Below, one piece after another: positions 6,045 through 46,388 of a stretch of DNA of 64,000 bases (position 1 is the stretch's first letter; each line of letters starts with the position of its first letter). Below the pieces are notes generated by a model, which worked only from the letters and a program-made list of their open reading frames with translations, ran no database searches and was not told the origin of the DNA. This DNA is from a virus (lineage: Duplodnaviria > Heunggongvirae > Uroviricota > Caudoviricetes), in the IMG/VR virus record IMGVR_UViG_3300029305_011675; one strand, given 5' to 3'. Both the position numbers and the translations under genes were made by a program.

Positions 6045-6135
6045 TGTAAAATAGAAACTTAAACCGAAACATAGAAACTTATTCTGAAACATAGGAAAGT
6101 TCTCTAAAAGTAGGTTTGAAACTTATTCCGAAACA
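6045..6135 (+). repeat. Tn7R-like end: four contiguous ~20-bp putative TnsB-binding repeats (consensus gaaactta-n4-gaaaca)
   Basis: Sites at 6053-6071, 6073-6091, 6093-6110 (degenerate) and 6117-6135, preceded by a terminal 8 bp tgtaaaat. Confidence 0.75.
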
Positions 6136-6164
6136 AATGTAAATAATCATTTAATCTAAAACAA

Positions 6165-6200
6165 AAAATCCCTCTCGTAATGAGAGGGATTTTATTTTTT
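6165..6200 (+). terminator. Rho-independent terminator just inside the transposon end
   Basis: atccctctcgtaatgagagggat + tttatttttt. Confidence 0.75.
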
Positions 6201-6443
6201 AATTATAAAAAACACATTCAATACTTGACTTTTTCAGAAAAAGTTTATATATTCTATATTATTGTTGAAAATTTTACACAAGGTTGGAGAAAGCACTCCG
6301 CACTTTAAAAGCAAATCTGTCATTCTTATTGTATCAAAAAAACATATAAATCAGTCAAAATTTATATTTTCCAGTATGCTTTTCTATAATATAAAACAAA
6401 TATGTGCAATAATTTATACAAAAATTAAGAAGGTGGTGAATCT

Positions 6444-6737
6444 GTGATGCAAATTAAATGTTTTATAAATGACAATTTTCGAACACTCTCTTATCTTTAT
6501 GATATTAAAGGTGAGGATAATCGTGCCCGTATCACACAACAAGAGGTGGCTGACGCTCTTGGAATTAGTCGCTCTACGCTAAACAAAATTATGAATGAAC
6601 TGAAAAAAGAAGGTTATGTCGAACAAGATGGTAACTATATGGGTCGCTATATTGTTACGAATGCAGCCATTTCAGTTATCGAGACATTTAGAAGTATTGA
6701 TAAAAACGATAGAGGAGGCACTTATGACAGAAATTAA
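6444..6737 (+). CDS. Small HTH transcriptional regulator
   Basis: 97 aa. ITQQEVADALGISRSTLNKIMNELKKEGYV is a classic helix-turn-helix. RBS aaggtgg. Overlaps the start of the next gene by 14 nt. Confidence 0.65.
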   Translation: MMQIKCFINDNFRTLSYLYDIKGEDNRARITQQEVADALGISRSTLNKIMNELKKEGYVEQDGNYMGRYIVTNAAISVIETFRSIDKNDRGGTYDRN

Positions 6738-9384: not shown

Positions 9385-9386
9385 AT

Positions 9387-10337
9387 ATGGCTATACATAA
9401 TAAATCTCACAACAATTCTGCACTTATGTCTTTAAATAAAATGAATAAGGACAACATCAAGCATAAGACATCAAAGGACTTTGAGATGCCCGAAAAAAGC
9501 ATTCAACTATTAATGATTCAAGATTGCTTGACTGCATTAAAAGAACTACCAGATAAATCAATCCAATTAATTTGCATTGACCCTCCTTATAATTTGGATT
9601 TGGCAGATTGGGATACATATGATAATTATATGAGTTGGTGTGCTGAATGGTTAAATGAATGTTGGAGAGTTTTGAAAGACGAAGGCAGTTTAGTTGTTTT
9701 TGGTGGCACTCAATTTAGAGATGAAAGAAGCGGCGATTTAACTGAAATTATCTATCATTGTCGCCACAATACTAAATGGAAGTTAGTCAACACAATTGTT
9801 TGGTATTACAAAAATGGAATGTCTGCCCATAGATATTTTGCAAACCGTCATGAGGAAATTATTTGGTTCGTAAAAACCGATAAATATTACTTTGATTTAG
9901 ATTCTGTTAGAGTAAAATATTCAGAAGAAGATTTAAAAAATGCCTTAAAAGATAAGAGACTGAATCCTGAAAATGTTAAAAAAGGCAAAAATCCAACAAA
10001 TGTATGGGAAATAGGTAGATTAAATGGTAATTCGTTAGAAAGAGTTGGACATCCAACCCAAAAACCTTTAGCAGTCATCAGGAGATTAGTTAAAGCATTA
10101 TCATATCCTGGGTCAACCGTCTTGGATTTCTTTGCAGGTAGCGGAACAACAGGTAGAGTGTGTATTGAAGAAGGTAGACACTGTATTCTTATAGATAAAG
10201 GCGAAACAACTACCGATTATTTTAAAAAACATATTGAAAAAATGGAAAAAACAACACTTGCAAAACCCCACCAGTCTGTTGAAACAATTGAAGAATTTTT
10301 CAATTGTGTCGAAGAAGAAACAAATAAAAACAATTAA
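9387..10337 (+). CDS. Beta-class N6-adenine/N4-cytosine DNA methyltransferase
   Basis: Motif IV LICIDPPYN lies upstream of motif I VLDFFAGSGTTG. RBS ggagg. Starts 2 nt after the upstream stop. Confidence 0.8.
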   Translation: MAIHNKSHNNSALMSLNKMNKDNIKHKTSKDFEMPEKSIQLLMIQDCLTALKELPDKSIQLICIDPPYNLDLADWDTYDNYMSWCAEWLNECWRVLKDEGSLVVFGGTQFRDERSGDLTEIIYHCRHNTKWKLVNTIVWYYKNGMSAHRYFANRHEEIIWFVKTDKYYFDLDSVRVKYSEEDLKNALKDKRLNPENVKKGKNPTNVWEIGRLNGNSLERVGHPTQKPLAVIRRLVKALSYPGSTVLDFFAGSGTTGRVCIEEGRHCILIDKGETTTDYFKKHIEKMEKTTLAKPHQSVETIEEFFNCVEEETNKNN

Positions 10338-10661
10338 CACCTTAACTTATTACTGCGAATTTTAAGTTAAATACAAACAAAAATATGGAGTCCGCAATAT
10401 CGGACTCTAAACCAAATATAAAAAAGAAGCCCGCTACTGCGAATAGCGGACTTCCGTATAACAACACTAAAATTAACATTTGTATGACTACCAATCTAAC
10501 AAAAGTGTTTTTTAATGCTGCTTTCTTATTATAGCATTTTCTTATCTAAATGTCAACTCATTTTTGTTAGAAATTCAGTATTCTTATACTTTTGTTAATT
10601 TTGACTAATCTCGTTCCTGCTCGGAACACAAAAATATTAAAATATGATAGGAGTAGATATT

Positions 10662-12812
10662 ATGGATAATATAATGCTAACCGTTGGTAATGTTATTATA
10701 GATGAGCATAGTGGCAAACAATATCGAGTTGTTGCAGTTGTAAACAATGATATTACTTTATGCGAGATGAATACTACGAAGTTTTTACTCTCGTTAATGA
10801 ATAAACAAACCTTGTTCGCACTTGTGGCAACAGGTGAATTAATAATCAAAGTCGAACCACCCATCGTTTTCAACAAGGATGACTTACCAGAGGGTTTTCA
10901 GAAAAAATTCACAATAAGACAACAGATAATGAATGAGGTCCTCAAGGAATATGGACCATCTTATATTGAACTAAACGGTAAAAAACGAGGCAGGACAGTC
11001 AAGGATATAATGAGTAAATATAACTTGGCAAGATGTTCTTTCTGGAGAATATGTACTCAATATTTTCAAAGTGGTCTTCAAGATTATTCGTTAGTTGATT
11101 CGAGATATTTTGGTGCAAATACTGGCAAGACATATAATTATGAGACCAAAACTGGTCGCCCACCAGAATACTCTATGGCATCGGGAATTATTATCACCGA
11201 TGAAATTATCAAGCATTTTGAAGAAGCATTGAAAGATTATAAGTCTGGAAGACACAAATCCATCAAGGATGCTTTTGACAAAATGAATTTGTTGCATTTT
11301 ACAAAAACAGAAATAATTAACGGTCAACCCAGTATTGTTTTATTGCCCATATCAGAAAGACCAACACTCGACCAATTTAGATACTATTGCAACAAACATC
11401 TTACAAACCAAGAAAAAGACTTAATAAAAACATCTGCACTCGAACAAAAGAATAACAAAAGACTTCTTGTAAGCGATTCACTCAATGGTGTAAATGGACC
11501 TGGTGATTTGGTAGAAATCGATGCTTGCGAAGCAGATATATCGTTGGTTTCTGTTATTGACTCATCAAAAACTATCGGCAGACCGATAGTGTACTTTATG
11601 GTTGATGTATACTCTCGCATTATCTTGGCAGTGTCTGTTGCTTTTGATAATAACTCTATGCTTGGTTTATCAAACTTATTTCTAAACCTTGCAGATGATA
11701 AACAGAAGTATTGTGAGAGATACGGAATTAGTTATGAAAACAAAGATATTTGGCCATCAAACATTATTCCCAATCGTGTTCGTGTTGACAAAGGTGCTGA
11801 ATTTAGAAGCAAAGAGTTTGAGAGAATCTGCAATGAACTTGGTATTGAAAGAAATATCGTATTGCCAGGGTGTGGTTCTCTCAAAGGTATTGTAGAGCAG
11901 TCATTTAGACAATTACATCTCAAACAAAATCATCATCTTGAAAATCATGGTCTCATTACCCAAAGACACGATTCCAAACATCATCAAGAGGCGATGTTGA
12001 ATATTGAAGAATATACTAAAATGGTTATTGGTTTTGTTCTAACTCACAACCAACAATGCTTAACAAATTTCCCACTCACAAAAGATATGATTTTGAAGAA
12101 GGTTCAACCCATTCCTGCTTTGTTGTGGAAATATGGCATAAACAACGGTTTCACACCGAGACCAATCCCTTCGCTGCAACAATATCTATTCAATCTTATG
12201 ACACCTATCAATGCCAAAGTAAGCAGAAAAGGTATCAGTCATAAGGAATTATATTATCTAAACACAGAAGATAAAAAACTTGCTCGTGAGATGTTTGATG
12301 CTGGCAACAAAAGAAAAGATTTTGAAGCAAGAATGGATATGAGAGATGTTGGTTCGATTTATTATATCAGAGATAATAAGTTAATGGTCGCCAGACTTAA
12401 CCCGCTAATTCAAGGGAATGCGGAATATGCTGGTATGACGATGAAGGAATACGAAGATTTCCGCAAGGGTAAAAAAGAACTTCTCGCAGCAGGCAAGGTT
12501 AATAACGAAGAATTGTCTGCATTCAATTATGCGATGAACAATGCTATTGTTGAAGAAGCGACAAAACCAATGTTACCTTCTGCAAAAGATATGAGACCTG
12601 CTCGTGAGATTGAAAAGCAGGCAAAATCTAAATCTAATAAAATCAGCAAAAGATTAGAACAACCTAAACTCGAAGCACCAAAAACGGAAGATGTTTTGGT
12701 AGAAGAGTTTATTGAAAAAATAACCGAATGTCCTCCTGCAGAGGAAGTCCCAGTAAAGAAAAATAAGTTAAACACATATAGCAATTGGGACGAAGCATTG
12801 GAAGATTGGTAA
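10662..12812 (+). CDS. tnsB: Tn7 TnsB-like / Mu-type DDE transposase
   Basis: About 717 aa. The core matches TnsB/TniA integrases, e.g. IVYFMVDVYSRIILAVSVAFDNNS and RVRVDKGAEFRS. RBS taggag. Confidence 0.75.
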   Translation: MDNIMLTVGNVIIDEHSGKQYRVVAVVNNDITLCEMNTTKFLLSLMNKQTLFALVATGELIIKVEPPIVFNKDDLPEGFQKKFTIRQQIMNEVLKEYGPSYIELNGKKRGRTVKDIMSKYNLARCSFWRICTQYFQSGLQDYSLVDSRYFGANTGKTYNYETKTGRPPEYSMASGIIITDEIIKHFEEALKDYKSGRHKSIKDAFDKMNLLHFTKTEIINGQPSIVLLPISERPTLDQFRYYCNKHLTNQEKDLIKTSALEQKNNKRLLVSDSLNGVNGPGDLVEIDACEADISLVSVIDSSKTIGRPIVYFMVDVYSRIILAVSVAFDNNSMLGLSNLFLNLADDKQKYCERYGISYENKDIWPSNIIPNRVRVDKGAEFRSKEFERICNELGIERNIVLPGCGSLKGIVEQSFRQLHLKQNHHLENHGLITQRHDSKHHQEAMLNIEEYTKMVIGFVLTHNQQCLTNFPLTKDMILKKVQPIPALLWKYGINNGFTPRPIPSLQQYLFNLMTPINAKVSRKGISHKELYYLNTEDKKLAREMFDAGNKRKDFEARMDMRDVGSIYYIRDNKLMVARLNPLIQGNAEYAGMTMKEYEDFRKGKKELLAAGKVNNEELSAFNYAMNNAIVEEATKPMLPSAKDMRPAREIEKQAKSKSNKISKRLEQPKLEAPKTEDVLVEEFIEKITECPPAEEVPVKKNKLNTYSNWDEALEDW

Positions 12813-12825
12813 GGAGGTATTCGAT

Positions 12826-14433
12826 ATGGATATAAAATATAATTATTACGAATGTGAAAAATTCGAGACACAATATGAAGATTATGATTTTGAAGAAAAC
12901 AAAATCGTAAATGCCAGATATGTTAAGGCACTTGTTGAATGTGATATCGGTAACCCATACATAGAGGCATTGCCACATCCGAGACACGAAGATGATGTAA
13001 GAGATGCATACACAAAACATCTTTTAACATACGACTACGATAAGGTCAAAAATATGACCAAATTAGAAAAGATGTTGCAAGTTAGCACTTTAAGGCAGAT
13101 AAGATTTCCTCTTACATTCCACAAGAATTTGGAATTTTCATTCTATAATGCTTTAATTACATCTTATAGGTCAAGGAAAATCAAACCCATAAACGATAAA
13201 CCAATTGAATATATTTCAAACGATATAGAGACAGAAACCAACTGTGTTTTATATGGTAATTCTGCCGATTCTACAAATGCAGGATTCTCTCTCATAGGTT
13301 ATTCTGGTTGTGGCAAAAGTTCCGCAATCCAAACATTGCTTTCGCATTATCCACAAACCATTATACATCGTGTAGATGAGTTTACACAATATGTCCAGAT
13401 TGTTTATTTGGTTGTAAACTGTGTACCCAATAGTAATTTCTCTGCATTATATGAAGGCATTGGCGATGCTGTTGATAAGGCGCTCGGCAATACTCAACCT
13501 GTTTATGCAAAAGAGATTGCAAAAACAACCACACTTGGCAGAAAAATGGAGAAGGTTCGTGAGTTAATAGAAAGATTTGGTATCGGAATGATTATCTTTG
13601 ATGAGATACAACTCATAGATTTTGATAGAACAAAAGAAAGTTCTTTTGAATCTTTAATGACTTTATCTAACAGAACAAAAGTCGCTATCGCTGTTGTAGG
13701 TACAGAAGATGCCAGAGACAAAATGTTTAAGGAATTAAGAACCACAAGAAGAATTGGAACAGTAATCAACGGTAATATGTATTGTGAGAACAAAATGTTT
13801 TTTACATTCCTTGTCACTCAACTATTTAACTATCAATGGTTTGATGAACCAATTGATGTAACAGAGGAACTTGTAGATGCCCTCTACGATGTCACCAAAG
13901 GCATTGTGGACCAACTTATAGGAATATACTCCTGTATGCATTACGACTATTTAGAGCGAAAGAAACGCCCCGTAATCGATGCGAAATATGTCTATGATAT
14001 AGCACAAAGATATTACCCAGGAATTCAGAATGTTCTTGCGGATTTGGAATCAATTGAAGCGGCAAGAAAACTTATGGGCATCAGACAAGATGCAGAAGTT
14101 AGAGTCGCTTCTATCATTGATAATGCAAAGCAGGAAAAAGAAGCAGAAGACTTGTTACAAAAACAAAATAAAGCAGTCGATAAAATGCTAATGTTGAAAA
14201 ATATTGTAGCAAATATCACTGCCCTATATGATGAATATTCTCTTTCTCAAATTGAAAAGGCATTTAATTTAGTTATAAAACAGACCAAAGACAATCCTAA
14301 ATCCGAAAGAGAAATGAGTCGTTTGGTTCTTGATAAACTTACTCACAGAAGAAATACCAAATCTGCAGATAAAAAGAAAAAGTCGAGTATCCCAGAAATG
14401 GATACAACGACTATGAGAGATTTTATTGGATAA
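12826..14433 (+). CDS. tnsC: TnsC-like AAA+ ATPase (transposition regulator)
   Basis: Walker A is GYSGCGKSS and Walker B is GMIIFDEIQ. It sits immediately downstream of tnsB, with RBS aaggagg. Confidence 0.75.
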   Translation: MDIKYNYYECEKFETQYEDYDFEENKIVNARYVKALVECDIGNPYIEALPHPRHEDDVRDAYTKHLLTYDYDKVKNMTKLEKMLQVSTLRQIRFPLTFHKNLEFSFYNALITSYRSRKIKPINDKPIEYISNDIETETNCVLYGNSADSTNAGFSLIGYSGCGKSSAIQTLLSHYPQTIIHRVDEFTQYVQIVYLVVNCVPNSNFSALYEGIGDAVDKALGNTQPVYAKEIAKTTTLGRKMEKVRELIERFGIGMIIFDEIQLIDFDRTKESSFESLMTLSNRTKVAIAVVGTEDARDKMFKELRTTRRIGTVINGNMYCENKMFFTFLVTQLFNYQWFDEPIDVTEELVDALYDVTKGIVDQLIGIYSCMHYDYLERKKRPVIDAKYVYDIAQRYYPGIQNVLADLESIEAARKLMGIRQDAEVRVASIIDNAKQEKEAEDLLQKQNKAVDKMLMLKNIVANITALYDEYSLSQIEKAFNLVIKQTKDNPKSEREMSRLVLDKLTHRRNTKSADKKKKSSIPEMDTTTMRDFIG

Positions 14434-14448
14434 TAGGAGGAATAAAGT

Positions 14449-16575
14449 ATGAATAAATTCATTCCTATGATTGTTGCCCCTTACCCAGACGAATTCTTAT
14501 ATTCTTGGGTAATGAGATTAGCAAACGCCAATAAACTTTCCGTTCCTCTGTTTTTTGAAACCTATTTCGGTAAAGAATACTTTAGCAAGTTTTTACTTCC
14601 CATAGATATTAGAAAAGGTTTTGGTTCATTCTATAATTTTCTTAATTGTACAACCCCTGTTTCAGAATTATATTTAAGTTTATCTACTCTACAATTTGAA
14701 TTATTGTCTTATCCACCCAAGATGCAGACAAAGTTCATAAATCCTATTTTCAGAAAAGAAAATAACATATATACCATAAAAGAATATTTAATGACAGATT
14801 TCCGTATGTGTAAAGAATGTATGAAGGAAGATAAGGAATTATTCGGAGAAACTTACATTCATCGTTCTCATCAGTTAAATGGTGTTTGTGTTTGTCATAA
14901 ACATCACACCCCATTATTTATTCAAAAAAGGAATTCGAAATACATTTACAAAGATGAAACTTTGGAACAAATGGAGTTAGCAGACACTTTTGAAAAAGAG
15001 TGCGAATATGCTGATTATACCCATTTTCTGTTAGAAAACAATTTTCAATCTAATTCTAATGATTTAATGAAAATCATAATCGATAAATTAGGGATATTAG
15101 AATCAAATAAAAAGGAATTGGTCATAAAAATAAACGAAATACTCAAAAATGGCAAAACTTATTCCAAAGAAAGTTTGTGGTCTAAAAACGATTGTAACTT
15201 TCCAATAAAAGATTTTATTAAAGTATTGATGTATGCATACCCAAATCCAAAAGACATATTAGTAAAAGCGAAGAAATTTTCTCTAATCATTGAACAAAAA
15301 TGTGATAAGTGCGGTAAGACTTTTTACACAACAGAACAAGCACTTAAAGATGGATGGGGTTGTACATTTTGTGATGATAAACTTAAAGAAATAGATTTGA
15401 TAAAGAGATTGATTAAAATTGGTGGAAACGGAGAATATGTTTTCAAAGGTTTCCTACCAACTAAAACTAAAAACAGCATACGTCTATTCCATAAACCTTG
15501 TGGCGAAGAACACCTTACCAGTTTAAATAACTTCGTTTTTAATCACAAAAGATGCAAGTGTGGTATAAAAATGCAAAGAAAAGAAGCAGAAAAAGAGATG
15601 AAAAAACACCCACAATTCAAGTTGGTTGAATTTAACGGTGCTACATTTCCTGCAAAGTTCCGTCACAATGATTGTGGTAGAGAGTTTGAATATAAATCAT
15701 TCAGATGGTTTTTAAAATGGCCTAAATGTCCTCATTGTCAAGGATTTACAAAAGAAAATCTTGAACAAGAAATAAGGGATGTTGTTGGGGATGAATATAC
15801 GGTTTGTGATATTGGTTCTATTCGTAAAGATAAAGTCACCATTAGGCACAACATTTGTGGATGCGCACACGAATATGTGCCATACAATTTTCTTATTGGT
15901 GCCAGATGTCCCAAATGCTACAATCAAGTGTCGTTAAGGGAATTGAAAATAATGTTAAAAGAATATTCTGATGATAGATATGAAATTGTAGGAAAAAGAA
16001 AAGAAAAATGTATTATATATGACAAGGAAACAGACGAAACCATTGAGTTGACAAATAGACATATATTGCAAGAGATTAAAAGACCAACACCATCTTCCTT
16101 ATTACCTGTAAAAAATCGCAAATCCATTCAAAGTCCTTTGTCAACTTGGGATTTTTGGTATCAACTTTGTATTGAATACAAAAACGAGTTTGGACATCTG
16201 TGTCCAGTGATGAATGAAACATACAAAGGATATAATCTATATAGTTGGTTGATTGTAACCAGACAATATTACAGAAAAGGACAACTTTCACAAGAAAAGA
16301 TACAAGCACTTAAAGATATAGATTTTGTATTCGATACTGCATTTTATAAGTGGGAACAAAGGTTTAATGAATATAAAGTATTTGTTAATGAAACAGGAAA
16401 TTATTTTCCTTCAGTCAAAGAAATACACAATGGAAATAAAGTGGGTCAGTGGTTTTTAAGGCAACGAAAAGCGAAAAACAGAGGTAGTTTAAAACCAAAG
16501 TATGAAAAAATATTATTGGAATATTATTCAGATTTTTTTAAAAAACATCCAAGATACAAAAACAATACCATTTAA
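14449..16575 (+). CDS. tniQ: TniQ/TnsD-like target-selector protein
   Basis: The N-terminus MIVAPYPDEFLYSWVMRLANAN is the TniQ signature. Multiple CxxC/CxxH zinc-finger clusters. 708 aa, closer in size to TnsD. Confidence 0.7.
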   Translation: MNKFIPMIVAPYPDEFLYSWVMRLANANKLSVPLFFETYFGKEYFSKFLLPIDIRKGFGSFYNFLNCTTPVSELYLSLSTLQFELLSYPPKMQTKFINPIFRKENNIYTIKEYLMTDFRMCKECMKEDKELFGETYIHRSHQLNGVCVCHKHHTPLFIQKRNSKYIYKDETLEQMELADTFEKECEYADYTHFLLENNFQSNSNDLMKIIIDKLGILESNKKELVIKINEILKNGKTYSKESLWSKNDCNFPIKDFIKVLMYAYPNPKDILVKAKKFSLIIEQKCDKCGKTFYTTEQALKDGWGCTFCDDKLKEIDLIKRLIKIGGNGEYVFKGFLPTKTKNSIRLFHKPCGEEHLTSLNNFVFNHKRCKCGIKMQRKEAEKEMKKHPQFKLVEFNGATFPAKFRHNDCGREFEYKSFRWFLKWPKCPHCQGFTKENLEQEIRDVVGDEYTVCDIGSIRKDKVTIRHNICGCAHEYVPYNFLIGARCPKCYNQVSLRELKIMLKEYSDDRYEIVGKRKEKCIIYDKETDETIELTNRHILQEIKRPTPSSLLPVKNRKSIQSPLSTWDFWYQLCIEYKNEFGHLCPVMNETYKGYNLYSWLIVTRQYYRKGQLSQEKIQALKDIDFVFDTAFYKWEQRFNEYKVFVNETGNYFPSVKEIHNGNKVGQWFLRQRKAKNRGSLKPKYEKILLEYYSDFFKKHPRYKNNTI

Positions 16576-16658
16576 TTAAGAGTTTGGCGATAAAAAGAAA
16601 CTCGTTATTTTGATAAAAAAACAGGGGTGCCTTTTTTAATTGCTTTAATTCAATTCTA

Positions 16659-16687
16659 TTGACAGAATGGCATATTTATGTTATAAT
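16659..16687 (+). promoter_or_regulatory. Sigma-A promoter TTGACA-17-TGTTATAAT for the cargo ORFs
   Basis: ttgacagaatggcatatttatgttataat, followed by a ~120-nt leader that contains a 15-bp long-range helix (16716-16731 pairing with 16778-16792). Confidence 0.6.
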
Positions 16688-16809
16688 AAAATTAGAATTC
16701 CGCAAGTTTTAACTACTTATTCTTTTGAAGATTAACCTGAAGTAGAGGTTATAACTGGATTTCCACACACACGAATCTCTTCAAAAAATAAGAAACGAGG
16801 TTAAAAAAT

Positions 16810-17247
16810 ATGTTATTTGAATATGATTATTGCGGAATTATGTTTAGAAATCCTTTTGCATATGATAATAAACAAAATTATCATTGCGCGACAATGCTGT
16901 TAAATGCATTGTCATCGTATATTACCACATATCGTCCAAAGGAAGAACACACAAGCGAAAGTATTTACAAATTGCTTGTCGCCAATTCAGAACAAAGACA
17001 CATTGGTGATTCTCCTTTTGCTATCAATGGAAAAGGTAGTCTTTTAGATGCAATTTTTGAAGAACTCCGAATGAAAGTTCCCTGTTGTATCGAATTAGAA
17101 TATTATAAAATATTTAAAGCATTTCCATTGAAACAACAACTTTCAGTTATTGCCACCTTGATGGCAGAAAATTTTGGTTTAAGAGAAAAGGCAATCGAGA
17201 ATTTTCTTAAAAAATCAAAAGACCCGTTTGTAACAAACAAAGAATAA
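16810..17247 (+). CDS. Hypothetical protein (transposon cargo)
   Basis: 145 aa. RBS gaaacgagg. No recognisable motif. Confidence 0.5.
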   Translation: MLFEYDYCGIMFRNPFAYDNKQNYHCATMLLNALSSYITTYRPKEEHTSESIYKLLVANSEQRHIGDSPFAINGKGSLLDAIFEELRMKVPCCIELEYYKIFKAFPLKQQLSVIATLMAENFGLREKAIENFLKKSKDPFVTNKE

Positions 17248-17308
17248 AATTAATGGCATACGATTGGTTGTGTGTGCAATCGTATGCTATTTTTTAGGAG
17301 AATTAGTT

Positions 17309-18241
17309 ATGAGAGAAAATTTAAAACAACTTATAGGCGAAGAAATTAGTGGTGTAGCAAAGTGTGTCAGAAATGGACATCGTTGCCTATTGAGAGATAT
17401 CGTAGTAGACGACTCTTGTTCTTTTGACCCAGACTTATATTTAGCAATAGAACAACACTTGTGGACAGATTCTAATGTTATTGAGAAAAACAATATAAAA
17501 CGATATTCTTATTTTCGTTTCGCTGGCTCTGTATATGAGTATAAAAGAGAAAACGACACAACAGATTATTCTATCGAATTAAAAGAAGTTGAACCGATTG
17601 ATACTTTTAAGTATTTAAAAAGCAGAATTCAGCAATGCTATTGTAGACATGTGTGTTTATTTTTTGAACACTGCTATTATAACTGCTGTGCACCACAATC
17701 AGAAAAAGATAATTTTGTTATTCCTGTATTAGAAAAGATGTTTTTAGAAGAAGCAGTCAACGATTTTGCAGAAGAATATGAATTTTCACCAAAGGATTTT
17801 CTAAAAGAAATCAGGAACAAAACTCTATTTAAAATTAGTGATGCACATATTTATCTTGGTATGAATAAGGCAGATTTTATCAAAAGATATAAGTCCAACA
17901 TTATTGAGGGCAATGAGTTTGGATATAAAATGAAACCTATTGAAGTAGATAAAATCTTCTTAACTCCAGTTATTCATTTTATGAAAAACGGGATGTGCGA
18001 TGCAATTGCATTTGAGACTAATCAAGATAATTTAAATACTGCAATTCAATATATAAATAAAAAGTATAACACAAATGTTACACTTTTTAATCACAAAGAA
18101 TTGATTGACTTATTCAAAGCAGAGATGGAATTTGGAGATATTATTTTTGGTTATTCAAAAGCACAAGAAAATCATCCTGCTTCCATTGTTATGAGTTTGT
18201 CAACACCAATATCGACATATTTCTCGGTTGGCTTACAATAA
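17309..18241 (+). CDS. Hypothetical protein (transposon cargo)
   Basis: The internal ATG has RBS taggag. 310 aa, Cys-containing, no recognisable motif. Confidence 0.5.
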   Translation: MRENLKQLIGEEISGVAKCVRNGHRCLLRDIVVDDSCSFDPDLYLAIEQHLWTDSNVIEKNNIKRYSYFRFAGSVYEYKRENDTTDYSIELKEVEPIDTFKYLKSRIQQCYCRHVCLFFEHCYYNCCAPQSEKDNFVIPVLEKMFLEEAVNDFAEEYEFSPKDFLKEIRNKTLFKISDAHIYLGMNKADFIKRYKSNIIEGNEFGYKMKPIEVDKIFLTPVIHFMKNGMCDAIAFETNQDNLNTAIQYINKKYNTNVTLFNHKELIDLFKAEMEFGDIIFGYSKAQENHPASIVMSLSTPISTYFSVGLQ

Positions 18242-18303
18242 AATATTTTTATATAAACGGAAACTTATAAAAATAAAAAACAATTTATAACACTATTAAG
18301 TTT

Positions 18304-18439
18304 TGTTTCAAAACAAGTTTCACAACATTGTAACTATCAAAGACATTATATTGCTTTGTTTTATAATAAGTTTCTAATAAATCACGAAGAAAACTATGAA
18401 AAAGCATAGTTCTGTTTCAAAATAAGTTTATAATCAACA
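18304..18439 (-). repeat. Tn7L-like end: three spaced inverted copies of the ~20-bp repeat plus the terminal 8 bp
   Basis: tgtttcaaaacaagtttcac (18304-18323), tgttttataataagtttct (18358-18376) and tgtttcaaaataagtttat (18413-18431). Each is the reverse complement of gaaactt...gaaaca. The element ends ...atcaaca at 18439. Confidence 0.75.
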
Positions 18440-18672: not shown

Positions 18673-19236
18673 ATGAAGAAAGTTGTATCTTGTATCTTGG
18701 TTGTTGTATGTATTATGTTCCTGTTTACTGCTTGTGACGCTCCCAGCGGTAGCACTGTAGACAAGACAAATACCAAGGAAATCGCAAACAAATTGCAGAC
18801 CAATCAACCTACCCCTACCGACATTGACTATTCCCTTGAGCGCTACAACCTCATTCGTCGTGCTTACTGGGTAAACGGTCAGAGAGATAAGGCAGATGCT
18901 GTTCCTTGTGCAGTAGAAAAGCCTTTGGGTTATATTGTGCTTTTCACTGAAAGTGGTGCAGTTGTCGGCAAGTTTGTTGTAGATGGTAAGGTAAGTAGTC
19001 TCAACAGTTATTTGACACCCGATAGTGAATATTTCGAAATTTCTTCTGGCAGTACCTATAAGAACGAATGGCTCACCGATGTCGATGGTTCTTATGGAGA
19101 AAATGACAGTGGTATTTTCTTCTTTGACACTATGGGCAATTACATTGAATGGACTGGCACTTATCTGTATACCGATATTCCTATGACTATCGAGAATCCT
19201 GTAATCAATTTTGATGTAACTTATGAGGAGGACTAA
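18673..19236 (+). CDS. Lipoprotein, hypothetical
   Basis: The signal peptide ends in the lipobox LFTAC. RBS aggagg. Confidence 0.6.
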   Translation: MKKVVSCILVVVCIMFLFTACDAPSGSTVDKTNTKEIANKLQTNQPTPTDIDYSLERYNLIRRAYWVNGQRDKADAVPCAVEKPLGYIVLFTESGAVVGKFVVDGKVSSLNSYLTPDSEYFEISSGSTYKNEWLTDVDGSYGENDSGIFFFDTMGNYIEWTGTYLYTDIPMTIENPVINFDVTYEED

Positions 19237-19239
19237 AAA

Positions 19240-19629
19240 ATGAATAAGACTTTAACTGTGATTATTTCCGTCGTTGTTGCTCTCGTCCTGTTTTGTGCCA
19301 TTTTCTTTGGCGCTACTCCCGCAGGCAGAGAAGTGTGGAATGGTTGGTTCAATAAGGTTCAGAAGGCCGATGATAATACCAACTATGAAACCATCAAGAA
19401 GGTAGAAGATACCTGCCGTGCTATGATTGCAAATTATGAAGCAGACAAACTGACCTACGAACAGTATAAGGACAGTGATGATGAAGAAAAGCAGTCTTGG
19501 GCGGAACAGGCAAAAATGCGTGCAAATAAAACCGCATCTTCTTACAACAATTACATCTTGCAGAACAGTCACGTATGGAAAGACAATGTCCCTGCTGACA
19601 TTTTATCCAAACTTCCGTACATCGAATAA
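19240..19629 (+). CDS. Membrane-anchored hypothetical protein
   Basis: N-terminal TM helix. RBS gaggagg. 3 nt after the previous stop. Confidence 0.55.
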   Translation: MNKTLTVIISVVVALVLFCAIFFGATPAGREVWNGWFNKVQKADDNTNYETIKKVEDTCRAMIANYEADKLTYEQYKDSDDEEKQSWAEQAKMRANKTASSYNNYILQNSHVWKDNVPADILSKLPYIE

Positions 19630-19675: not shown

Positions 19676-19731
19676 CGACCAAAGCAATAAAAAAGTAAGC
19701 GCATTATGTGCTTACTTTTTTGCTTTGTATG

Positions 19732-19760
19732 TTGACATTGGGTATGTTTTATGGTATAAT
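19732..19760 (+). promoter_or_regulatory. Sigma-A promoter ttgacattgggtatgttttatggtataat
   Basis: Perfect -35, 17-bp spacer and an extended -10. A terminator hairpin sits at 19694-19726. Confidence 0.7.
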
Positions 19761-19791
19761 AAGATAAAGAACTAATAGGAGGCATATATAA

Positions 19792-20479: not shown

Positions 20480-21370
20480 ATGGGTTGCGATATTCATACA
20501 ATTGTTGAAATAAAGAAAAATGGAAAGTGGGAATATGTCCCTGACTTACCCGTTGTTTTTGACAGCAGAAGTTACGGTGTTTTTTCCATCTTAAACAGAA
20601 ATGTCCGTAACAGTTACGGACGAGATGGTTTTGAGCAAAAAGGTCTACCCCACGATGTTAGTGGTCGCCGTTTTAGATTTACTTCTCACCGAGAAGAACT
20701 CGAAAGAGCATATAACCACAAGGAGACTTTTGTCTGTTATATTGGCGGAGAAGACAAAAAATATGTTCAAGTTTATGACGAAAGTCTGAAAACCGAAATT
20801 GATTTCGAATTTTACGAAGAACTTAAGAGCGGAATGACACACGAACAGTCGCTTCGCTATTATTCTCCCACTCAAACCGCTTACCCTCAAAAGTATTTTG
20901 TACAGGATGCACAAAAAGTTGGTGGGCAATTTATGGAAATTCCCTATCGTTTCCTATATTCTGACATCAAGGAATTCAATAAAGCATATTATAATTATCC
21001 TTGGTATGATGAAGAGCAAGACTTTGGATACTATGATGTCGATTTTGACAGCGACCTCCACAGTCATTCTTATCTTTCTCTGGCAGAACTCAAAACCAAG
21101 GTAATGACTAAATCTTCCGAAAAAGAATTTTTGGTTAATAAAGAGTTTTTGGTATGTCTTAAAGAAGAATTAGGTGGCGATTTTCCCGAAACAATGATTA
21201 TTGGTGACGAAGTGGATGGCAATAACAAAGTTTCCTTTGTAGTTGACCCTTATGAAACCTGTTGCCAAGAAAATTACAATGAAGGTGTTGAAGAACTATG
21301 CAAGATTAAAGAAAAGTACAATATAGTAAACGACGAAGATATTCGTATCGTTTTTGCTTTCGATTCTTAA
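20480..21370 (+). CDS. Hypothetical protein, 'MGCDIH...IRIVFAFD' family (paralog A)
   Basis: Shares with 22736..23683 the N-terminus MGCDIH.I.EI.KNGKW, FDSR.YG.FS.L, KGLP.D.S, SYLSL.EL and the C-terminus DIRIVFAFD. Starts 2 nt after the ASCH gene. Confidence 0.6.
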   Translation: MGCDIHTIVEIKKNGKWEYVPDLPVVFDSRSYGVFSILNRNVRNSYGRDGFEQKGLPHDVSGRRFRFTSHREELERAYNHKETFVCYIGGEDKKYVQVYDESLKTEIDFEFYEELKSGMTHEQSLRYYSPTQTAYPQKYFVQDAQKVGGQFMEIPYRFLYSDIKEFNKAYYNYPWYDEEQDFGYYDVDFDSDLHSHSYLSLAELKTKVMTKSSEKEFLVNKEFLVCLKEELGGDFPETMIIGDEVDGNNKVSFVVDPYETCCQENYNEGVEELCKIKEKYNIVNDEDIRIVFAFDS

Positions 21371-21387
21371 CAAAAAGGAGTGATTTT

Positions 21388-21957
21388 GTGATTTTATGGA
21401 CTGTACAACCAGTTGAAGTTTATGAGAAAATTTTAGAAACAGGTAAATATGTTTGTGATGGTAGGCGAACCGATAAATTTTTTCGAGACAGATATAAATG
21501 GTTGTGCGAAGAAATGAAAATCAAAATCGGCAAACCTCCTAAAAATGTAACATACCCTGTTTGGGCATGGCATACAAGGGACTTCAAAAGAAAGAAACCA
21601 GACCTTCGCTCTTCATCCGAACACGGACGCCGTGGCGACAAAATGGTTTGTATGGAAATTGAAGTACCAGATAAAGATGTTCTCCTGACAGACTTCGATG
21701 CTTGGCACTTTGTTCTCAATAAATGGTATTTAAACACCAATTGTTGGGATGAAGAAACCTTTGACAAAGACCATGAATGGTTAGATAGTCTTTCGAAAGA
21801 AGAAAGAGAACATGTCATTGAAGAATCTTGGCAAGGAATTTATAATATTGAACCCAAAGAAACGGACTGGTGTGCTCGTGGGAAATGGGTACAAGCAACC
21901 TTTTGGGAACTCAAAAAAGAATATATCAAAAAAGTACAGTTTTTTACTGTTAGATAA
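21388..21957 (+). CDS. DUF3841-like protein (tentative); GTG start
   Basis: MILWTVQPVEVYEKILETGKY resembles the DUF3841 N-terminus. RBS aaaggag. Confidence 0.4.
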   Translation: MILWTVQPVEVYEKILETGKYVCDGRRTDKFFRDRYKWLCEEMKIKIGKPPKNVTYPVWAWHTRDFKRKKPDLRSSSEHGRRGDKMVCMEIEVPDKDVLLTDFDAWHFVLNKWYLNTNCWDEETFDKDHEWLDSLSKEEREHVIEESWQGIYNIEPKETDWCARGKWVQATFWELKKEYIKKVQFFTVR

Positions 21958-21960
21958 CAC

Positions 21961-21994
21961 AAAAAGCAACTTCTTTTCGAAGTTGCTTTTTTAG
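21961..21994 (+). terminator. Rho-independent terminator
   Basis: aaaaagcaacttcttttcgaagttgctttttt. Confidence 0.8.
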
Positions 21995-22026
21995 TACCCA
22001 AATCAGATACTTTTCATAAAAACAGG

Positions 22027-22055
22027 TTGACATTGAGAATACTTTGTGGTATAAT
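22027..22055 (+). promoter_or_regulatory. Sigma-A promoter ttgacattgagaatactttgtggtataat
   Basis: Consensus -35 and an extended -10. Confidence 0.7.
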
Positions 22056-22089
22056 AATATTAAAGAAAATACACAAAGGAGAATGAATT

Positions 22090-22722
22090 ATGAAGTTATA
22101 TATCTTTTCTTCTGTAAACGGTAAGATTTCTCGTGAGGAAAAGGAAGTTATTGAAAAGAACAAGATTTTTGTTGAGAAAGTTGGCATTTCTGAACGACAT
22201 TATGCAAAGAGTATGCTTGATGTTCCAGAGACCACTATTTCTTCTGTTTCTATGATTTCTTTAAATGGTCGTATTGACCACTTTGCGCAGGAAGTCTTAA
22301 AGGCGCAAAAGAATGAAATCGACAAACTTGAGAGAAAGCTCGCAGAAAAGAAAAATACACTAATTCGCTTTAAGATGAATTATGCTGGTGTATTGGAGTG
22401 TCGTGTTGAAAACGGCATTTATAATGCAGTTTCTACTCTTGAATTTAAGTACAATGGCGATATGGTCTCTGCCACCAAAGAATCTGTTGAAAATAAAACT
22501 CCCGTTCAGATTCCCCTACATCACATTGTGGACGGTGAGTTATTCTTTGAGATGATGGAAGAACACCCTTTCCTTTCCGTCTATAATATTTTTGTAAACG
22601 GAAATGCTACCAACCTTGCATTAGAAGGTTACGAAAACGGTAAGGAAAACGAATGTGTAATTTCTATGGAAAAGTTAAAGAAAATGCACGAAAAAACCAA
22701 GTTAGAAATTGATTGCGAATAA
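22090..22722 (+). CDS. Hypothetical protein
   Basis: 210 aa. RBS aaaggag. Confidence 0.55.
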   Translation: MKLYIFSSVNGKISREEKEVIEKNKIFVEKVGISERHYAKSMLDVPETTISSVSMISLNGRIDHFAQEVLKAQKNEIDKLERKLAEKKNTLIRFKMNYAGVLECRVENGIYNAVSTLEFKYNGDMVSATKESVENKTPVQIPLHHIVDGELFFEMMEEHPFLSVYNIFVNGNATNLALEGYENGKENECVISMEKLKKMHEKTKLEIDCE

Positions 22723-22735
22723 GGAGGAAATTTAA

Positions 22736-23683
22736 ATGGGTTGCGATATTCATATTATCACAGAAATCAGAAAAAATGGCAAATGGCAATGGGTAAAAGA
22801 AATCCCAGAATCATTTGACAGCAGAAATTATGGTCTTTTTTCAGTTCTTGCAGGTGTAAGAAACTCTTTCAACATCAAGGGCTTTGAAGCGAAGGGTCTC
22901 CCCGAAGACATCAGTGCAATGAAATTTGACTTCGAAACTTACACAAACAGAGCAAAAGAAAGATTTTATGACGACAATGATGGTCAAATCCTCTTTGTTG
23001 ACAAAGACGGTAATTACCACGAACCTTCTGCTGTTGAGAAAACTCATCTCACAAAAGAGGAATATGAGACACTCAATGTAAAACAAAGAACAGAAGTTGA
23101 TACATTTGATAAGCAGTATAATTCTCTCGGTTATACTCAAAGCGGAAATCAGACACCCGATTATTATGTTCGAGATGCTTATGCAAATGGTGGTCGCTTT
23201 GAACGGATTCCTCACTATAAGTATTACCCCAATATTGAAGCATTTCTAAAAGATTACTACGAAGACGACTGGGATGAAGAAATGCAAGATTATGGTCGCT
23301 GGAGAGTAAACTTCGAATACTGCGGTCCTCACGGCGATTACCACACCCCAAGTTTCCTTTCTCTCCACGAACTCATCACTGCTGATTTGAAGGACTATTA
23401 TTCTGACAAATACAAGATGGATGTTGCTTTTTATGAAGCATTCAAGAGAATGGGCGGAACTCTTCCCGAAGGTATGACCGTTCAGGAATTCACTCCTGAA
23501 ACTTTGCAGGATGTTTTTCAGTCTGCACTTTGCCCAGTTATTTTGGTAGTCTGGGAAAAGGACGAAGAGGCAAAGAAAGAAACTGCACTTTACTGTGGTA
23601 TCGAAGAAATGAAAGAAATCGCAAAGAAGTACGGCATCGACGACCCTAACGACATTCGTATTGTATTTGCATTCGATAATTAA
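22736..23683 (+). CDS. Hypothetical protein, 'MGCDIH...IRIVFAFD' family (paralog B)
   Basis: Same terminal and internal motifs as 20480..21370. RBS aaggagg. Confidence 0.6.
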   Translation: MGCDIHIITEIRKNGKWQWVKEIPESFDSRNYGLFSVLAGVRNSFNIKGFEAKGLPEDISAMKFDFETYTNRAKERFYDDNDGQILFVDKDGNYHEPSAVEKTHLTKEEYETLNVKQRTEVDTFDKQYNSLGYTQSGNQTPDYYVRDAYANGGRFERIPHYKYYPNIEAFLKDYYEDDWDEEMQDYGRWRVNFEYCGPHGDYHTPSFLSLHELITADLKDYYSDKYKMDVAFYEAFKRMGGTLPEGMTVQEFTPETLQDVFQSALCPVILVVWEKDEEAKKETALYCGIEEMKEIAKKYGIDDPNDIRIVFAFDN

Positions 23684-23708: not shown

Positions 23709-23749
23709 AGAACCACTTTCTTTGAAAGTGGTTCTTTTGTATGTTTTTT
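23709..23749 (+). terminator. Rho-independent terminator
   Basis: gaaccactttctttgaaagtggttc + ttttgtatgtttttt. Confidence 0.8.
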
Positions 23750-23760
23750 GTATTTTCTGG

Positions 23761-23789
23761 TTGACATTCGCAGTGTTTTATGGTATAAT
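23761..23789 (+). promoter_or_regulatory. Sigma-A promoter ttgacattcgcagtgttttatggtataat
   Basis: Consensus -35 and an extended -10. Confidence 0.7.
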
Positions 23790-23816
23790 TATATTAAAGA
23801 AAAAGGAGGAATTGAT

Positions 23817-30059: not shown

Positions 30060-30812
30060 TTATGTACGACCCCAATTTGGATGAATCGGTTTGCTATTGT
30101 CAGCATACCTCCATTTATATCCACATGCATTATGACTTTCTACTCTTGCAGAATCGCTAATCTTACTAACAGTCCCTTTAAGTTCTTTTGTATTTGAAAG
30201 TCCTCGTCTCCTCATCTCCCTACCAGCATCGCTTATAGTGCAAAAACGCTCCAGAACTTCGCCAGTTTCAATATCACACATTAGAATCTCGCGCCCACGA
30301 TTTGATGTGCAATTTGCTCGTGTATCATATCCATATTCTTGCAACTTTAATCGTACTGTATCTTTATCGTAATTATACATTGCAGCAATTTCCTTTACTT
30401 CATAACCCTCTTCGTATAATTGAGCAAACAATTTACCATCCACTTTCTCGCCGCCTTCGCCACCACTCGTTGAATTATATCCGTTACGAAAAGTATCATG
30501 ATATTGAATAAGTTCTTTTTCTCTTGCTGGTCCTTGTCCTTTTGGAACAAATTCCAAAATAACAAAATCAAAACTTTCAATCCCGTTTTTTCTTATCTCA
30601 TTATAGAACTTGCTGTTTTGACCAATTCCATTGCGTGCATTTTTGATATGTTGCTTTAATCTCGTCTCGAATTGCTTATTTGACCAACCTATGTAAACCA
30701 TACCAGTAATCTTACTGATGAAAGCATATTCGACATCTTGTTTTCTTGTATCGTGTTTTATAAGTTGATTTTTTCTCGATTCTTGTTCCGCACTTAATGT
30801 AAATTTATGCAT
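30060..30812 (-). CDS. GIY-YIG nuclease family protein with a C-terminal NUMOD-like DNA-binding region (homing-endonuclease-like)
   Basis: GMVYIGWSNKQFETRLKQH...NSKFYNEI...GYN matches the GIY-YIG motifs. The C-terminus contains G.KWRY. Confidence 0.65.
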   Translation of the reverse strand: MHKFTLSAEQESRKNQLIKHDTRKQDVEYAFISKITGMVYIGWSNKQFETRLKQHIKNARNGIGQNSKFYNEIRKNGIESFDFVILEFVPKGQGPAREKELIQYHDTFRNGYNSTSGGEGGEKVDGKLFAQLYEEGYEVKEIAAMYNYDKDTVRLKLQEYGYDTRANCTSNRGREILMCDIETGEVLERFCTISDAGREMRRRGLSNTKELKGTVSKISDSARVESHNACGYKWRYADNSKPIHPNWGRT

Positions 30813-38280: not shown

Positions 38281-38318
38281 AAACTTCTGCACAAATTTTG
38301 TGCAGAAGTTTCTTTTTC
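38281..38318. terminator. Bidirectional terminator
   Basis: aaacttctgcacaaattttgtgcagaagtttcttttt. Confidence 0.8.
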
Positions 38319-39081
38319 AATATTCAAATTTAGGGATAGGTCTTTCCTTAAAAAGATTCTTGCGGTGTTTTTCATCGATAAGTTCTTTCACCTTAACATC
38401 TTCGCACTTACCAGTACGAATGTATTTATCCAATACTGCATAAGTGAAACCGAGATTATCTTCGTCGGTCTTACCACACAAGTCATCCGTAGGAACTCTG
38501 TCTACAAGATGCTTTGGAAGCAGATGTGCAAGTTCGTAACCAATCTGTTTTAGTTCCGTAACAGTAAAACTCTTCAAAGGGGCAAAATCACCGACGCTAT
38601 CGCCCCATCTTGTAGAATAACCCACCCAATCTTCAGAAAGATTACAGGTGTTTACTACGCGACCATTACAGGACTGGGATACCGCATAAAGAGTAGACAT
38701 ACGAATTCTCGGAGCGAGATTGATGGCAGTCTGTTCACTCACATCCTTATTCATTGCATTCTCAATGCAGTGAATAAGAGAACAATACGGTGCATTGATA
38801 GGTACGGTATAGCATACAATACCAAGACTCTTAACAACATCGTTTACCGCATTCATAGTCTGATTAAGTGCATCCTCGGTTACTTGAACCGTATTTGGCA
38901 TCGTAACACCAATCACCCTATCTTTACCCAATGCTTCTACACACAAGGCGGCGGCGATGGAACTATCCTTACCACCAGAAATACCAATAATGGCATTACA
39001 ACCCTTTCCGTTCTCTTCGAACCACTGACGAATCCACTCAACAATATCATTTTTAACCTTCAAAGCATTAAATTTTTCCAT
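38317..39081 (-). CDS. nadE: NH3-dependent NAD+ synthetase
   Basis: IIGISGGKDSS is the SGGxDS PP-loop. 254 aa, typical for NadE. Confidence 0.85.
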   Translation of the reverse strand: MEKFNALKVKNDIVEWIRQWFEENGKGCNAIIGISGGKDSSIAAALCVEALGKDRVIGVTMPNTVQVTEDALNQTMNAVNDVVKSLGIVCYTVPINAPYCSLIHCIENAMNKDVSEQTAINLAPRIRMSTLYAVSQSCNGRVVNTCNLSEDWVGYSTRWGDSVGDFAPLKSFTVTELKQIGYELAHLLPKHLVDRVPTDDLCGKTDEDNLGFTYAVLDKYIRTGKCEDVKVKELIDEKHRKNLFKERPIPKFEY

Positions 39082-40937: not shown

Positions 40938-41003
40938 AACAATATCTCCTTTTATTTTGGTTTTGTGATATTTTTTACTTAATATCACTTTGATGTTAAG
41001 TAG

Positions 41004-41032
41004 ATTATAGCACAAGATTTTCGATTTGTCAA
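41004..41032 (-). promoter_or_regulatory. Sigma-A promoter, copy 1 of a duplicated ~50-bp promoter region (40986-41036)
   Basis: The reverse complement reads ttgacaaatcgaaaatcttgtgctataat. The second copy is at 46372-46420, upstream of the NADAR-nicotinamidase operon. Confidence 0.7.
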
Positions 41033-41756: not shown

Positions 41757-41811
41757 GCTTTTTTCATTTCTTTCATATATAATTAAGAAATAACTCAATA
41801 GGAGGGTGTTT

Positions 41812-44801: not shown

Positions 44802-44802
44802 C

Positions 44803-45027
44803 TTAATCGCACTCCTTATCAAAGTTTTCTTCGAAAAATTGTGTCATCAAATTAGTCTTAAACTCTTCAATAACACAACGAATATGGTCTGTGTCAGCAG
44901 AACAACTAATGTCTCCCTGTTGCTTATATACATATTCCTTTCCCCTAAACACAAGGACAAAAGTATATGTCTCCCAGTCAACAGACTTGCAAAGGACATC
45001 TTTATATTCCAGATTATAACTATCCAT
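44803..45027 (-). CDS. Small hypothetical protein
   Basis: 74 aa. Ends 2 nt before the Prs-like start. Confidence 0.4.
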   Translation of the reverse strand: MDSYNLEYKDVLCKSVDWETYTFVLVFRGKEYVYKQQGDISCSADTDHIRCVIEEFKTNLMTQFFEENFDKECD

Positions 45028-46344: not shown

Positions 46345-46388
46345 AATGTACATCTCCTTTTACTTATTATCATTTTGATGTTAAGTAG

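Follow-up and report, generated by a model that had tools for sequence, protein, structure and literature searches.

Two neighbouring genes in a 64,000-nucleotide stretch of viral DNA (IMG/VR record IMGVR_UViG_3300029305_011675, Caudoviricetes; hereafter the window) encode proteins of about 300 amino acids (aa), here called A and B, that are paralogs of each other and resemble no named family. In the reading that we favour, at a probability of roughly 40%, they are functional, anciently duplicated members of an undescribed and mainly phage-borne superfamily of small acidic cytoplasmic proteins, the core of which is a stand-alone metal-dependent hydrolase with a fold absent from the PDB.

Both open reading frames (ORFs) lie where a sequence-only reading of the window had placed them, on the plus strand and with stop codons included (Table 1), and each is preceded by a Shine-Dalgarno-like sequence. 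The paralogy claimed in that reading is borne out by BLASTP of A against B (36% identity end to end, E 5e-49, far above chance); identity is 61% within the N-terminal ~61 residues and drops to 29% in the middle, with 31% in the C-terminal part. The motifs that it quoted are present, with a correction to one internal block, which is SYLSLAEL in A and SFLSLHEL in B; the C-termini read ...NDEDIRIVFAFDS in A and ...DPNDIRIVFAFDN in B. The middle regions are acidic (net charge -9 and -12) and rich in aromatic residues (19-23% F/W/Y), as had been said. In the related locus L109 the orthologs of A and B are 95% and 97% identical, respectively, each with a ratio of nonsynonymous to synonymous substitution rates (dN/dS) of 0.06, which shows A and B to be genuine genes under selection. 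A protein identical to A is encoded on at least 24 metagenomic contigs, many of them 50 kb to 1 Mb long, with identical gene order, and none of the other loci retrieved carries two copies of the family.

The family to which the two proteins belong is very large. A word-indexed search with B gave 134 relatives in two size classes, ~290-320 aa and ~185-200 aa, and a profile search of 1.84 billion cluster representatives recovered at least 6,468 clusters at E<=1e-3, a number that falls to 1,557 at E<=1e-10 and to no more than 70 at E<=1e-30. The clusters are mostly 190-250 aa long, and E values for the long forms go down to 1e-115. A profile built from 60 diverse short forms matched 3,245 proteins in the word index, all named "hypothetical protein" and none with a Pfam domain. 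The divergent middle of A and B corresponds to a ~130-aa insert (B 62-199) that enters the core between S60 and D85 and is wholly absent in the short forms, which makes A and B members of a small long-form subgroup. Among the PHROGs the family is represented by two anonymous entries of unknown function, phrog_10141 (A 5.3e-18, B 4.1e-19) and phrog_17909 (B 6.4e-9), which stand for short-form relatives: the profiles align with the N-terminal ~60 residues and with one further stretch, whereas the ~130-aa insert is missing from both profiles, and neither entry has a name, function, structure or literature.

In almost all members the chain starts and ends at fixed positions. The signature (B numbering) opens with M-G-(C)-D-(I)-H, followed by W17, R30-N-Y32..F..LA.V-R42-N and (K/R)53-G-x-P-x-D58, and closes with D201-x-H203-[ST]-x-S206..L.E212-L, W273 and a terminal R308-[IV]-V-F-x-F-D314-[NS]. 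A and B carry all signature blocks of this MGxDxH...RIVFxFD(N/S) superfamily. The conserved polar set comprises D4, H6, E10, R30, N31, Y32, R42, N43, K/R53, D58, D201, H203, S204, S206, E212, R308, D314 and N315; A keeps D4, H6, E10, R30, Y32, R43, K54, D59, H194, S197, E203, R289 and D295 (its own numbering), departs from the family at the conserved positions D201, D217 and W273, which in A are L, V and Q, and is missing the strand at about B268-274. Of the Cys-Asp-Ile-His that had been called invariant, the histidine holds, since H6 is near-invariant in one unfiltered alignment (A1) and invariant in the other (A2), while positions 3 and 4 vary: C3 is conserved in ~94-95% of members and replaced by T, V or A, or in a few aligned members by K or S, and D4 is present in 100% of short forms and 92% of long forms, with Ser in ~6% of the latter. 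Our 314-sequence table was filtered on M1, G2, H6, F313 and Asp/Glu314, and its 100% conservation at those positions is by construction.

Coevolution supplied a view of how these residues are arranged. Mean-field direct coupling analysis (DCA) of 384 members (effective number of sequences, Meff, 330; 199 columns; numbering of member P0098) gave top pairs that coincide with the strands of the AlphaFold models, which are predicted with high confidence for the family. One ladder pairs the first strand (residues 5-13) antiparallel with the C-terminal strand at i+j ~202 (L7-I193, I11-I191, R12-D190, I8-A196, C3-N199), another sets strand 85-94 antiparallel to the C-terminal strand on its opposite side (D85-N199, D85-A196, Y86-A196, K95-E189, L94-I191), and contacts of the conserved loops fall at the same corner (L55-A196, I59-A196, E10-S60, P52-S90, G49-S90, R42-H87, C3-V41). 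By register, D4 would face the C-terminal Asp, the D.H.S strand would start beside the D4/Asp and E10/Arg pairs, and E10, opposite the invariant Arg, probably forms a structural salt bridge. From the ladders and their register, D4, H6, D201, H203, S206, R42, K53-D58, D314-N315 and both chain termini should share one pocket, and the long-form insert would enter beside it, between the GLPxD loop and the D.HS.S strand.

On the hydrolase reading, the ~190-aa core would be a stand-alone enzyme of phosphoesterase or nuclease type built on three antiparallel strands abreast, namely the N-terminal one (M1-G2-C3-D4-I5-H6), the C-terminal one (R-I-V-F-x-F-D-N/S-COOH) and D-x-H-S/T-x-S. Their packing would gather D4, H6, D201, H203, S206 and D314, together with the chain termini, at one corner, where the VRN and (K/R)GxPxD loops (R42, K53, D58) may contribute groups that bind phosphate. 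As its substrate the enzyme would take a nucleic-acid end or a nucleotide in the early DNA or RNA metabolism (replication, recombination, RNA repair) of a phage or mobile element, the ~130-aa insert of the ~300-aa subgroup would probably be a lid or specificity module beside the pocket, A and B may differ in target, and B-type genes may work with, or be modulated by, a fast-evolving 210-aa protein encoded next to them. The sequence-only reading had proposed an enzymatic or metal-binding core with a variable specificity region, and part of this stands: the variable middle is an insert on a constant core, while metal binding, catalysis and a role of the insert in specificity are what we infer for it.

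None of the searches led to a relative of known function. A and B had no match in Pfam, NCBIfam, PADLOC or the sequences of the PDB, and only the anonymous PHROGs entries above were hit; 60 diverse members showed no relevant family in Pfam; and searching the PDB sequences with one sequence and with profiles of both forms found nothing. Comparison of the fold with solved structures revealed neither a relative nor a recognisable catalytic fold. A match to DUF7034 (E 0.046) was rejected, as no other member reproduced it. The earlier statement that no known family can be assigned thus agrees with the library scans and PDB searches, which returned no named family and no housekeeping-enzyme match. 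In the literature library searched, no paper mentions 'MGCDIH' or 'phrog_10141', and a search on DUF3841, PcfJ and ASCH gave only irrelevant C. elegans plasmid papers. The family is new to description, not new to databases, where its members sit in anonymous clusters and as "hypothetical proteins", and surprise is tempered by the fact that uncharacterised phage families are common.

Some known enzymes resemble the family at first sight. Calcineurin-like metallophosphoesterases (PF00149, including Pnkp-type end-healing enzymes) likewise have a D-x-H where the first strand begins and a putative Asp/His-rich metal site, occur in the same phage modules and are in one case (L003) encoded directly adjacent to a family gene. 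Their five-motif set (DxH / GD / GNH[DE] / H / GHxH) and alpha-beta-beta-alpha sandwich are absent here, and PF00149 matched neither A nor B nor any of the 60 diverse members. For 2H phosphoesterases (LigT / Acb1-like), with two H-x-[TS]-x motifs on a duplicated fold, there was no fold match, and the family has a single H-[ST]-x-S element, its first His lying within D-x-H-x-x-x-E. The nuclease folds PD-(D/E)xK, HNH/beta-beta-alpha-Me, GIY-YIG and RNase H-like gave no domain match or structural similarity. AEP and RRM-like palm enzymes have a superficially similar order of motifs on beta-strands (acidic-x-His/acidic; S-x-H-like; a final hydrophobic-Asp).

Viruses are by far the main carriers of the family, and IMG/VR contains at least 448 confirmed loci. 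Among cultured phages, in which the gene is always annotated as hypothetical, it is carried by 38 Paenibacillus larvae phages, Caulobacter phages CcrColossus and CcrPW, Pseudomonas phages 201phi2-1 and Viktualia, Aeromonas and Salmonella phages, Erwinia phage S6 and Enterobacter phage EcP1 (gp28), and further carriers are Acinetobacter phage Phab24, Mycobacterium phage WXIN and a 642-kb megaphage. Hosts span Firmicutes, Proteobacteria and Actinobacteria, and the phages range from 41-kb temperate ones to 640-kb megaphages. Most members are single genes without a partner in the early regions of lytic and temperate phages; in Vegas the gene lies 3' of the cI/Cro/Rha switch, in Dragolir (gp53) between a Sak4-like annealing protein and helicase/primase genes, and in L001 after Rad52-like and Gp157 genes. 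When neighbours within six genes on either side were clustered, each cluster was confined to 4 of the 81 loci at most, a pattern in favour of a stand-alone function. A family-wide operon partner was accordingly rejected, the partners seen in the window recurring only in close relatives.

The neighbours do share a theme, which is replication, recombination and RNA repair. A Pfam census of 150 of them includes RecT, PolA, clamp, dUTPase, Metallophos and HNH; a PHROG census of 130 includes metallophosphoesterase, Thg1, RNA ligase, Dda helicase, primase, Sak4, RecE-like exonuclease, RNase H and endonuclease VII; and other exonucleases, HNH homing endonucleases and Ant appear in the two censuses as well. 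An association with defence islands, which had been suggested as something to look for, did not emerge, as the 280 neighbouring ORFs contained no defence systems or anti-defence families. In L003 (6709-8945) the stop codon of a gene for a 430-aa polynucleotide kinase and metallophosphoesterase overlaps the start of a 314-aa long-form member; that 430-aa protein matches only positions 1-392 of the 737-position kinase-phosphatase-ligase phrog_8238 and is thus without the ligase part. Other long-form loci carry Thg1 and RNA ligase (L011), RtcB (L102), HAD-PNKP (L001) or NAD-dependent ligase and Lar (L098), and some long forms adjoin ireB, folD, mgsA and tatD and look chromosomal.

Each paralog of the window has the upstream partner that had been assigned to it, an ASCH-like protein for A and the 210-aa protein for B. 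The latter matches no family in Pfam, PHROGs, NCBIfam or PADLOC and forms only 6 clusters in 5.8 billion proteins, yet in every lineage where it was found its gene is directly upstream of a B-type long form. It diverges faster than its neighbour throughout, being 69% identical in L109 where B is 97%, 42% in L102 where the B-like gene is 61%, and 40% in L111 where the B-like gene is 51%, with a 4-nucleotide (nt) gap between the two genes. Between the window and L109 its synonymous divergence (dS) is 1.84 versus ~0.2 for its neighbours, all flanking genes being 95-99% identical (dS 0.1-0.6), which suggests allelic replacement by recombination or rapid evolution of the gene itself. Other long forms that we examined lack it; a 212-aa gene upstream of the long form in L011 was rejected as its counterpart, since the two are not homologous.

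Several points weigh against the hydrolase reading, for which the support counted is indirect and consists of the conserved Asp and His residues and their inferred clustering. The family resembles no enzyme in sequence or fold, and ligand binders without catalytic activity can have conserved Asp/His/Arg pockets too. Some of the residues that would form the site are not constant (Ser replaces D4 in part of the long forms, C3 varies, and A lacks three otherwise conserved residues). The depth of the DCA is modest for its 199 columns; the proximity of invariant residues, for which covariation is impossible, is deduced from their neighbours; and the pocket comes from coevolution and strand logic, not from measured distances. 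The neighbourhood signal is a module-level tendency without a specific functional link, and in part of the set, the window included, the genes appear to sit in cellular chromosomes. One may also consider a non-catalytic binder or inhibitor, either an acidic blocker of a host nuclease or defence protein, comparable to Gam, Abc2, gp5.9, Ocr or ArdA, or a sponge for nucleotide signals, comparable to Tad1, Tad2 or Acb2, with the pocket as the site for ligand or partner. We regard this as somewhat unlikely. It would suit a family that is acidic throughout (median isoelectric point 4.84, below 6 in 95% of members, and 4.7-4.8 in A and B), whose members, like Ocr, ArdA, Gam and gp5.9, are small products of early genes on mobile elements, and whose genes stand alone beside recombination genes, where phages often keep nuclease inhibitors; the failure to recognise a catalytic fold, the variable loops and inserts on a constant core, and the fast evolution of the 210-aa neighbour point the same way. 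Proteins such as Tad1/Tad2, Acb1/Acb2 and Apyc1, stand-alone early phage products with a small-molecule pocket, would look alike at the genome level. However, neither these sponges nor the DNA mimics show similarity to the family in sequence or fold (for ArdA and Ocr, none to A or B despite their acidity), and to our knowledge the mimics lack a strongly conserved polar pocket such as this family has. The strict Asp/His pairs at both termini, kept across phyla, are more typical of metal or catalytic sites, and no member matched PADLOC, nor did either neighbour census contain an anti-defence family.

An accessory, non-enzymatic replication or recombination factor, serving annealing proteins, helicases or primases as adaptor, loader or regulator, is improbable in our judgement. 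The genes do sit in such modules (Dragolir gp53, L001, and the RecT, clamp, primase and polymerase neighbours), but the recurrence limit of 4 in 81 loci applies to any partner family, the replication systems involved are many and different and are missing from the apparently chromosomal sites, and the conserved residues are charged or polar and of pocket type, not those of an interface patch. We give still less credence to a toxin or abortive-infection (defence) effector, for which the 210-aa protein (with B) or the ASCH-like and DUF3841 proteins (with A) would be immunity or sensor components in an island of defence or addiction modules. The two-gene architecture, with a fast-diverging upstream partner retained down to 40% identity, is what invites this explanation, together with a match of the ASCH-like N-terminus to the PADLOC candidate PDC-M11B and with an island that adjoins a transposon and has its own promoters and terminators. 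Yet most members are single early phage genes without a partner, PADLOC-DB v2 gave no significant match for A or B, the homologs' neighbours are not of defence-island type, and both paralogs are under strong purifying selection with very little diversification. A bolder extension of the hydrolase reading, which we think unlikely, is that the family is a new-fold metalloenzyme with an active site made of N- and C-terminal residues, present in thousands of phages across phyla and processing ends or destroying signals on nucleic acids or nucleotides, and that the long form with its 210-aa partner is an unrecognised two-gene counter-defence or addiction-like module adopted by cellular genomes.

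The family ranks among the larger portions of viral "dark matter" that bear a clear signature, its residues look catalytic, and once its activity is defined thousands of phage genes could be annotated at once. The replication, recombination and RNA-repair modules of phages could gain from it a new enzyme fold, or a new activity in host takeover or counter-defence. Paenibacillus phage Vegas gp47 and Enterobacter phage EcP1 gp28 are tractable systems, and the two diverged paralogs of the window, one accompanied by a fast-evolving partner, are a natural pair for comparison.

Table 1. Genes and signals of the island that holds A and B, and genes of the transposon upstream of it
Feature	Position	Strand	Remarks
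ResIII helicase with HNH-associated repeat	6616-9384		transposon
N6/N4 DNA methylase	9387-10337		transposon
TnsB-like transposase (rve/HTH_TnsB)	10644-12812		transposon
TniB	12826-14433		transposon
TniQ fused to HA domains	14449-16575		transposon
Two unknown ORFs	16810-18241		transposon
Consensus sigma-70/sigmaA-type promoter, TTGACA-17-TATAAT with TG extension	19732-19760	+	12/12 hexamer match; heads the ASCH-A-DUF3841 unit
ASCH-like gene, 228 aa	19792-20478	+	one base separates its stop codon from the start of A
Paralog A, 296 aa	20480-21370	+	N-core 1-62 (20480-20665), insert 63-190 (20666-21049), C-core 191-296 (21050-21367)
DUF3841 gene, 189 aa, GTG start	21388-21957	+	full-length match to Pfam PF12952 (E 5e-30); final gene in the first unit
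Intrinsic-terminator-like hairpin and T-run (aaaaagcaacttcttttcgaagttgctttttt)	21961-21991	+	13-pair stem; closes the first unit
Consensus promoter, second copy	22027-22055	+	12/12 match, TG extension; heads the 210-aa-B unit
210-aa protein gene	22090-22722	+	upstream partner of B-type genes; lineage-restricted, fast-diverging
Paralog B, 315 aa	22736-23683	+	N-core 1-61 (22736-22918), insert 62-199 (22919-23332), C-core 200-315 (23333-23680)
Terminator-like hairpin after B	23709-23735	+	12-pair stem, then T-run
Consensus promoter, third copy	23761-23789	+	12/12 match; heads the PcfJ-like gene
PcfJ-like protein, 792 aa	23817-26195	+	Pfam PcfJ E 4e-31, phrog_8470 6.5e-56; ends the conserved island, adjoins mgtC

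A and B lie in separate transcription units, promoter-ASCH-A-DUF3841-terminator and promoter-210aa-B-terminator (Table 1). The hairpin that closes the first unit was reported on the minus strand by the scan, and its palindromic stem can equally be read on the plus strand, where TTTTTT follows. The ASCH-like protein has a weak Pfam ASCH match (E 0.096) and matches phrog_3136 (2e-15); its orthologs in L101 and L109 are 92-98% identical and unchanged in position. Its match to PDC-M11B, a candidate defence component, covers the N-terminal ~60 aa (E 1.5e-10), the other ~165 residues being without a match. The DUF3841 gene is conserved 3' of A-like genes in L101, L104-106 and L109, and both neighbours accompany A only in near-identical relatives. 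For the PcfJ-like protein, which has two zinc-ribbon-like segments before its PcfJ domain, an alternative TTG start at 23661 would give 844 aa and overlap the end of B; the terminator and promoter between the two genes, and the 792-aa gene calls in L104 and L109, point to the ATG at 23817.

The three units of the island are headed by members of a 53-nt direct-repeat family (19716-19768, 22011-22063, 23745-23797). Near-identical promoters (TTGACATTG..TGGTATAATAA) also occur at 16659 and 62992 on the plus strand and at 4140, 10556 and 59206 on the minus strand. The 31-nt pattern has five matches, versus 0 expected by chance. A promoter special to the A and B genes was rejected, the identical consensus being found elsewhere in the window.

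That A and B are cargo of the adjacent transposon is hardly credible. What suggests it is the presence of TnsB-, TniB- and TniQ-like genes 4-10 kb upstream on the same strand. The element, a Tn7-like transposon at 6054-18430, is inserted a few bases 3' of the yqeY stop codon and is bounded by 3+3 inverted repeats (GAAACTTATTCCGAAACA). These end repeats, 18-25 nt long, are direct at 6054, 6074 and 6118 (+) and inverted at 18304, 18357 and 18413 (-), with 0.08 expected by chance, and they close the element well before A starts at 20480 and B at 22736. In L109 the gene order is yqeY - pilin - ASCH - A - DUF3841 - 210aa - B - PcfJ - mgtC, with no transposon, and the window and L109 are near-identical through the yqeY stop codon and TTGTAAAATA, after which the window enters the first end repeat. 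The end repeats and the empty site in L109 thus refute the cargo explanation, and, with the junction, they indicate that the two-paralog island belongs to the replicon itself and predates the split between the window and L109. A second variable spot lies beside the island: between the right end of the transposon and the ASCH-like gene (18673-19629) the window carries two ORFs, one lipoprotein-like (187 aa) and the other for a membrane protein (129 aa), while the corresponding place in L109 (4030-5268) holds a 412-aa pilin-like gene.

Evidence on the nature of the replicon is divided. Ordinary cellular genes (prs, nadE, NAMPT, a NADAR-nicotinamidase fusion, metK, galE, mgtC and a cation-efflux gene) speak for a chromosome, as do the exact sequence on the JGI contigs L105 and L106, when the IMG/VR search gave no exact match, and the location of relatives beside ireB, folD and mgsA. 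Against it stand the lack of any tRNA or Rfam match in the 64 kb, the lack of a match in GTDB species representatives, and the presence of several orphan DNA methyltransferases and a GIY-YIG endonuclease. A reading of the window as a jumbo phage rich in counter-defence was downgraded, since NAMPT, Prs, NadE, NADAR-nicotinamidase, MetK, GalE and MgtC are ordinary cellular genes.

The NAD and nucleotide-salvage cluster comprises, on the minus strand, NAD synthetase (38317-39081), NAMPT (39141-41015), a Prs-like ribose-phosphate pyrophosphokinase (43962-44822), a NADAR-isochorismatase (nicotinamidase-like) fusion (45355-46353), a NUDIX protein (54270-54986) and a nucleoside 2-deoxyribosyltransferase (54997-55431), and in addition an HD-domain protein (56843-57406); it may serve ordinary salvage in a genome that is reduced, or else be a phage-type set for NAD+ reconstitution. 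Four DNA methyltransferases (N6/N4, phrog_67-type, phrog_11619-type and C5, at 9387-10337, 41806-42522, 46540-47067 and 48294-49502), none beside an obvious restriction enzyme, and a GIY-YIG homing-endonuclease-like gene (30060-30812) are together unusually dense for a stretch of 64 kb. At 469-1776 and 4521-5519 lie genes for pilin-like proteins that carry an N-terminal methylation motif, one of the proteins being fused to DUF6273, and DUF6273 proteins also occur on L098, a phage-like contig that carries a long-form member of the family.

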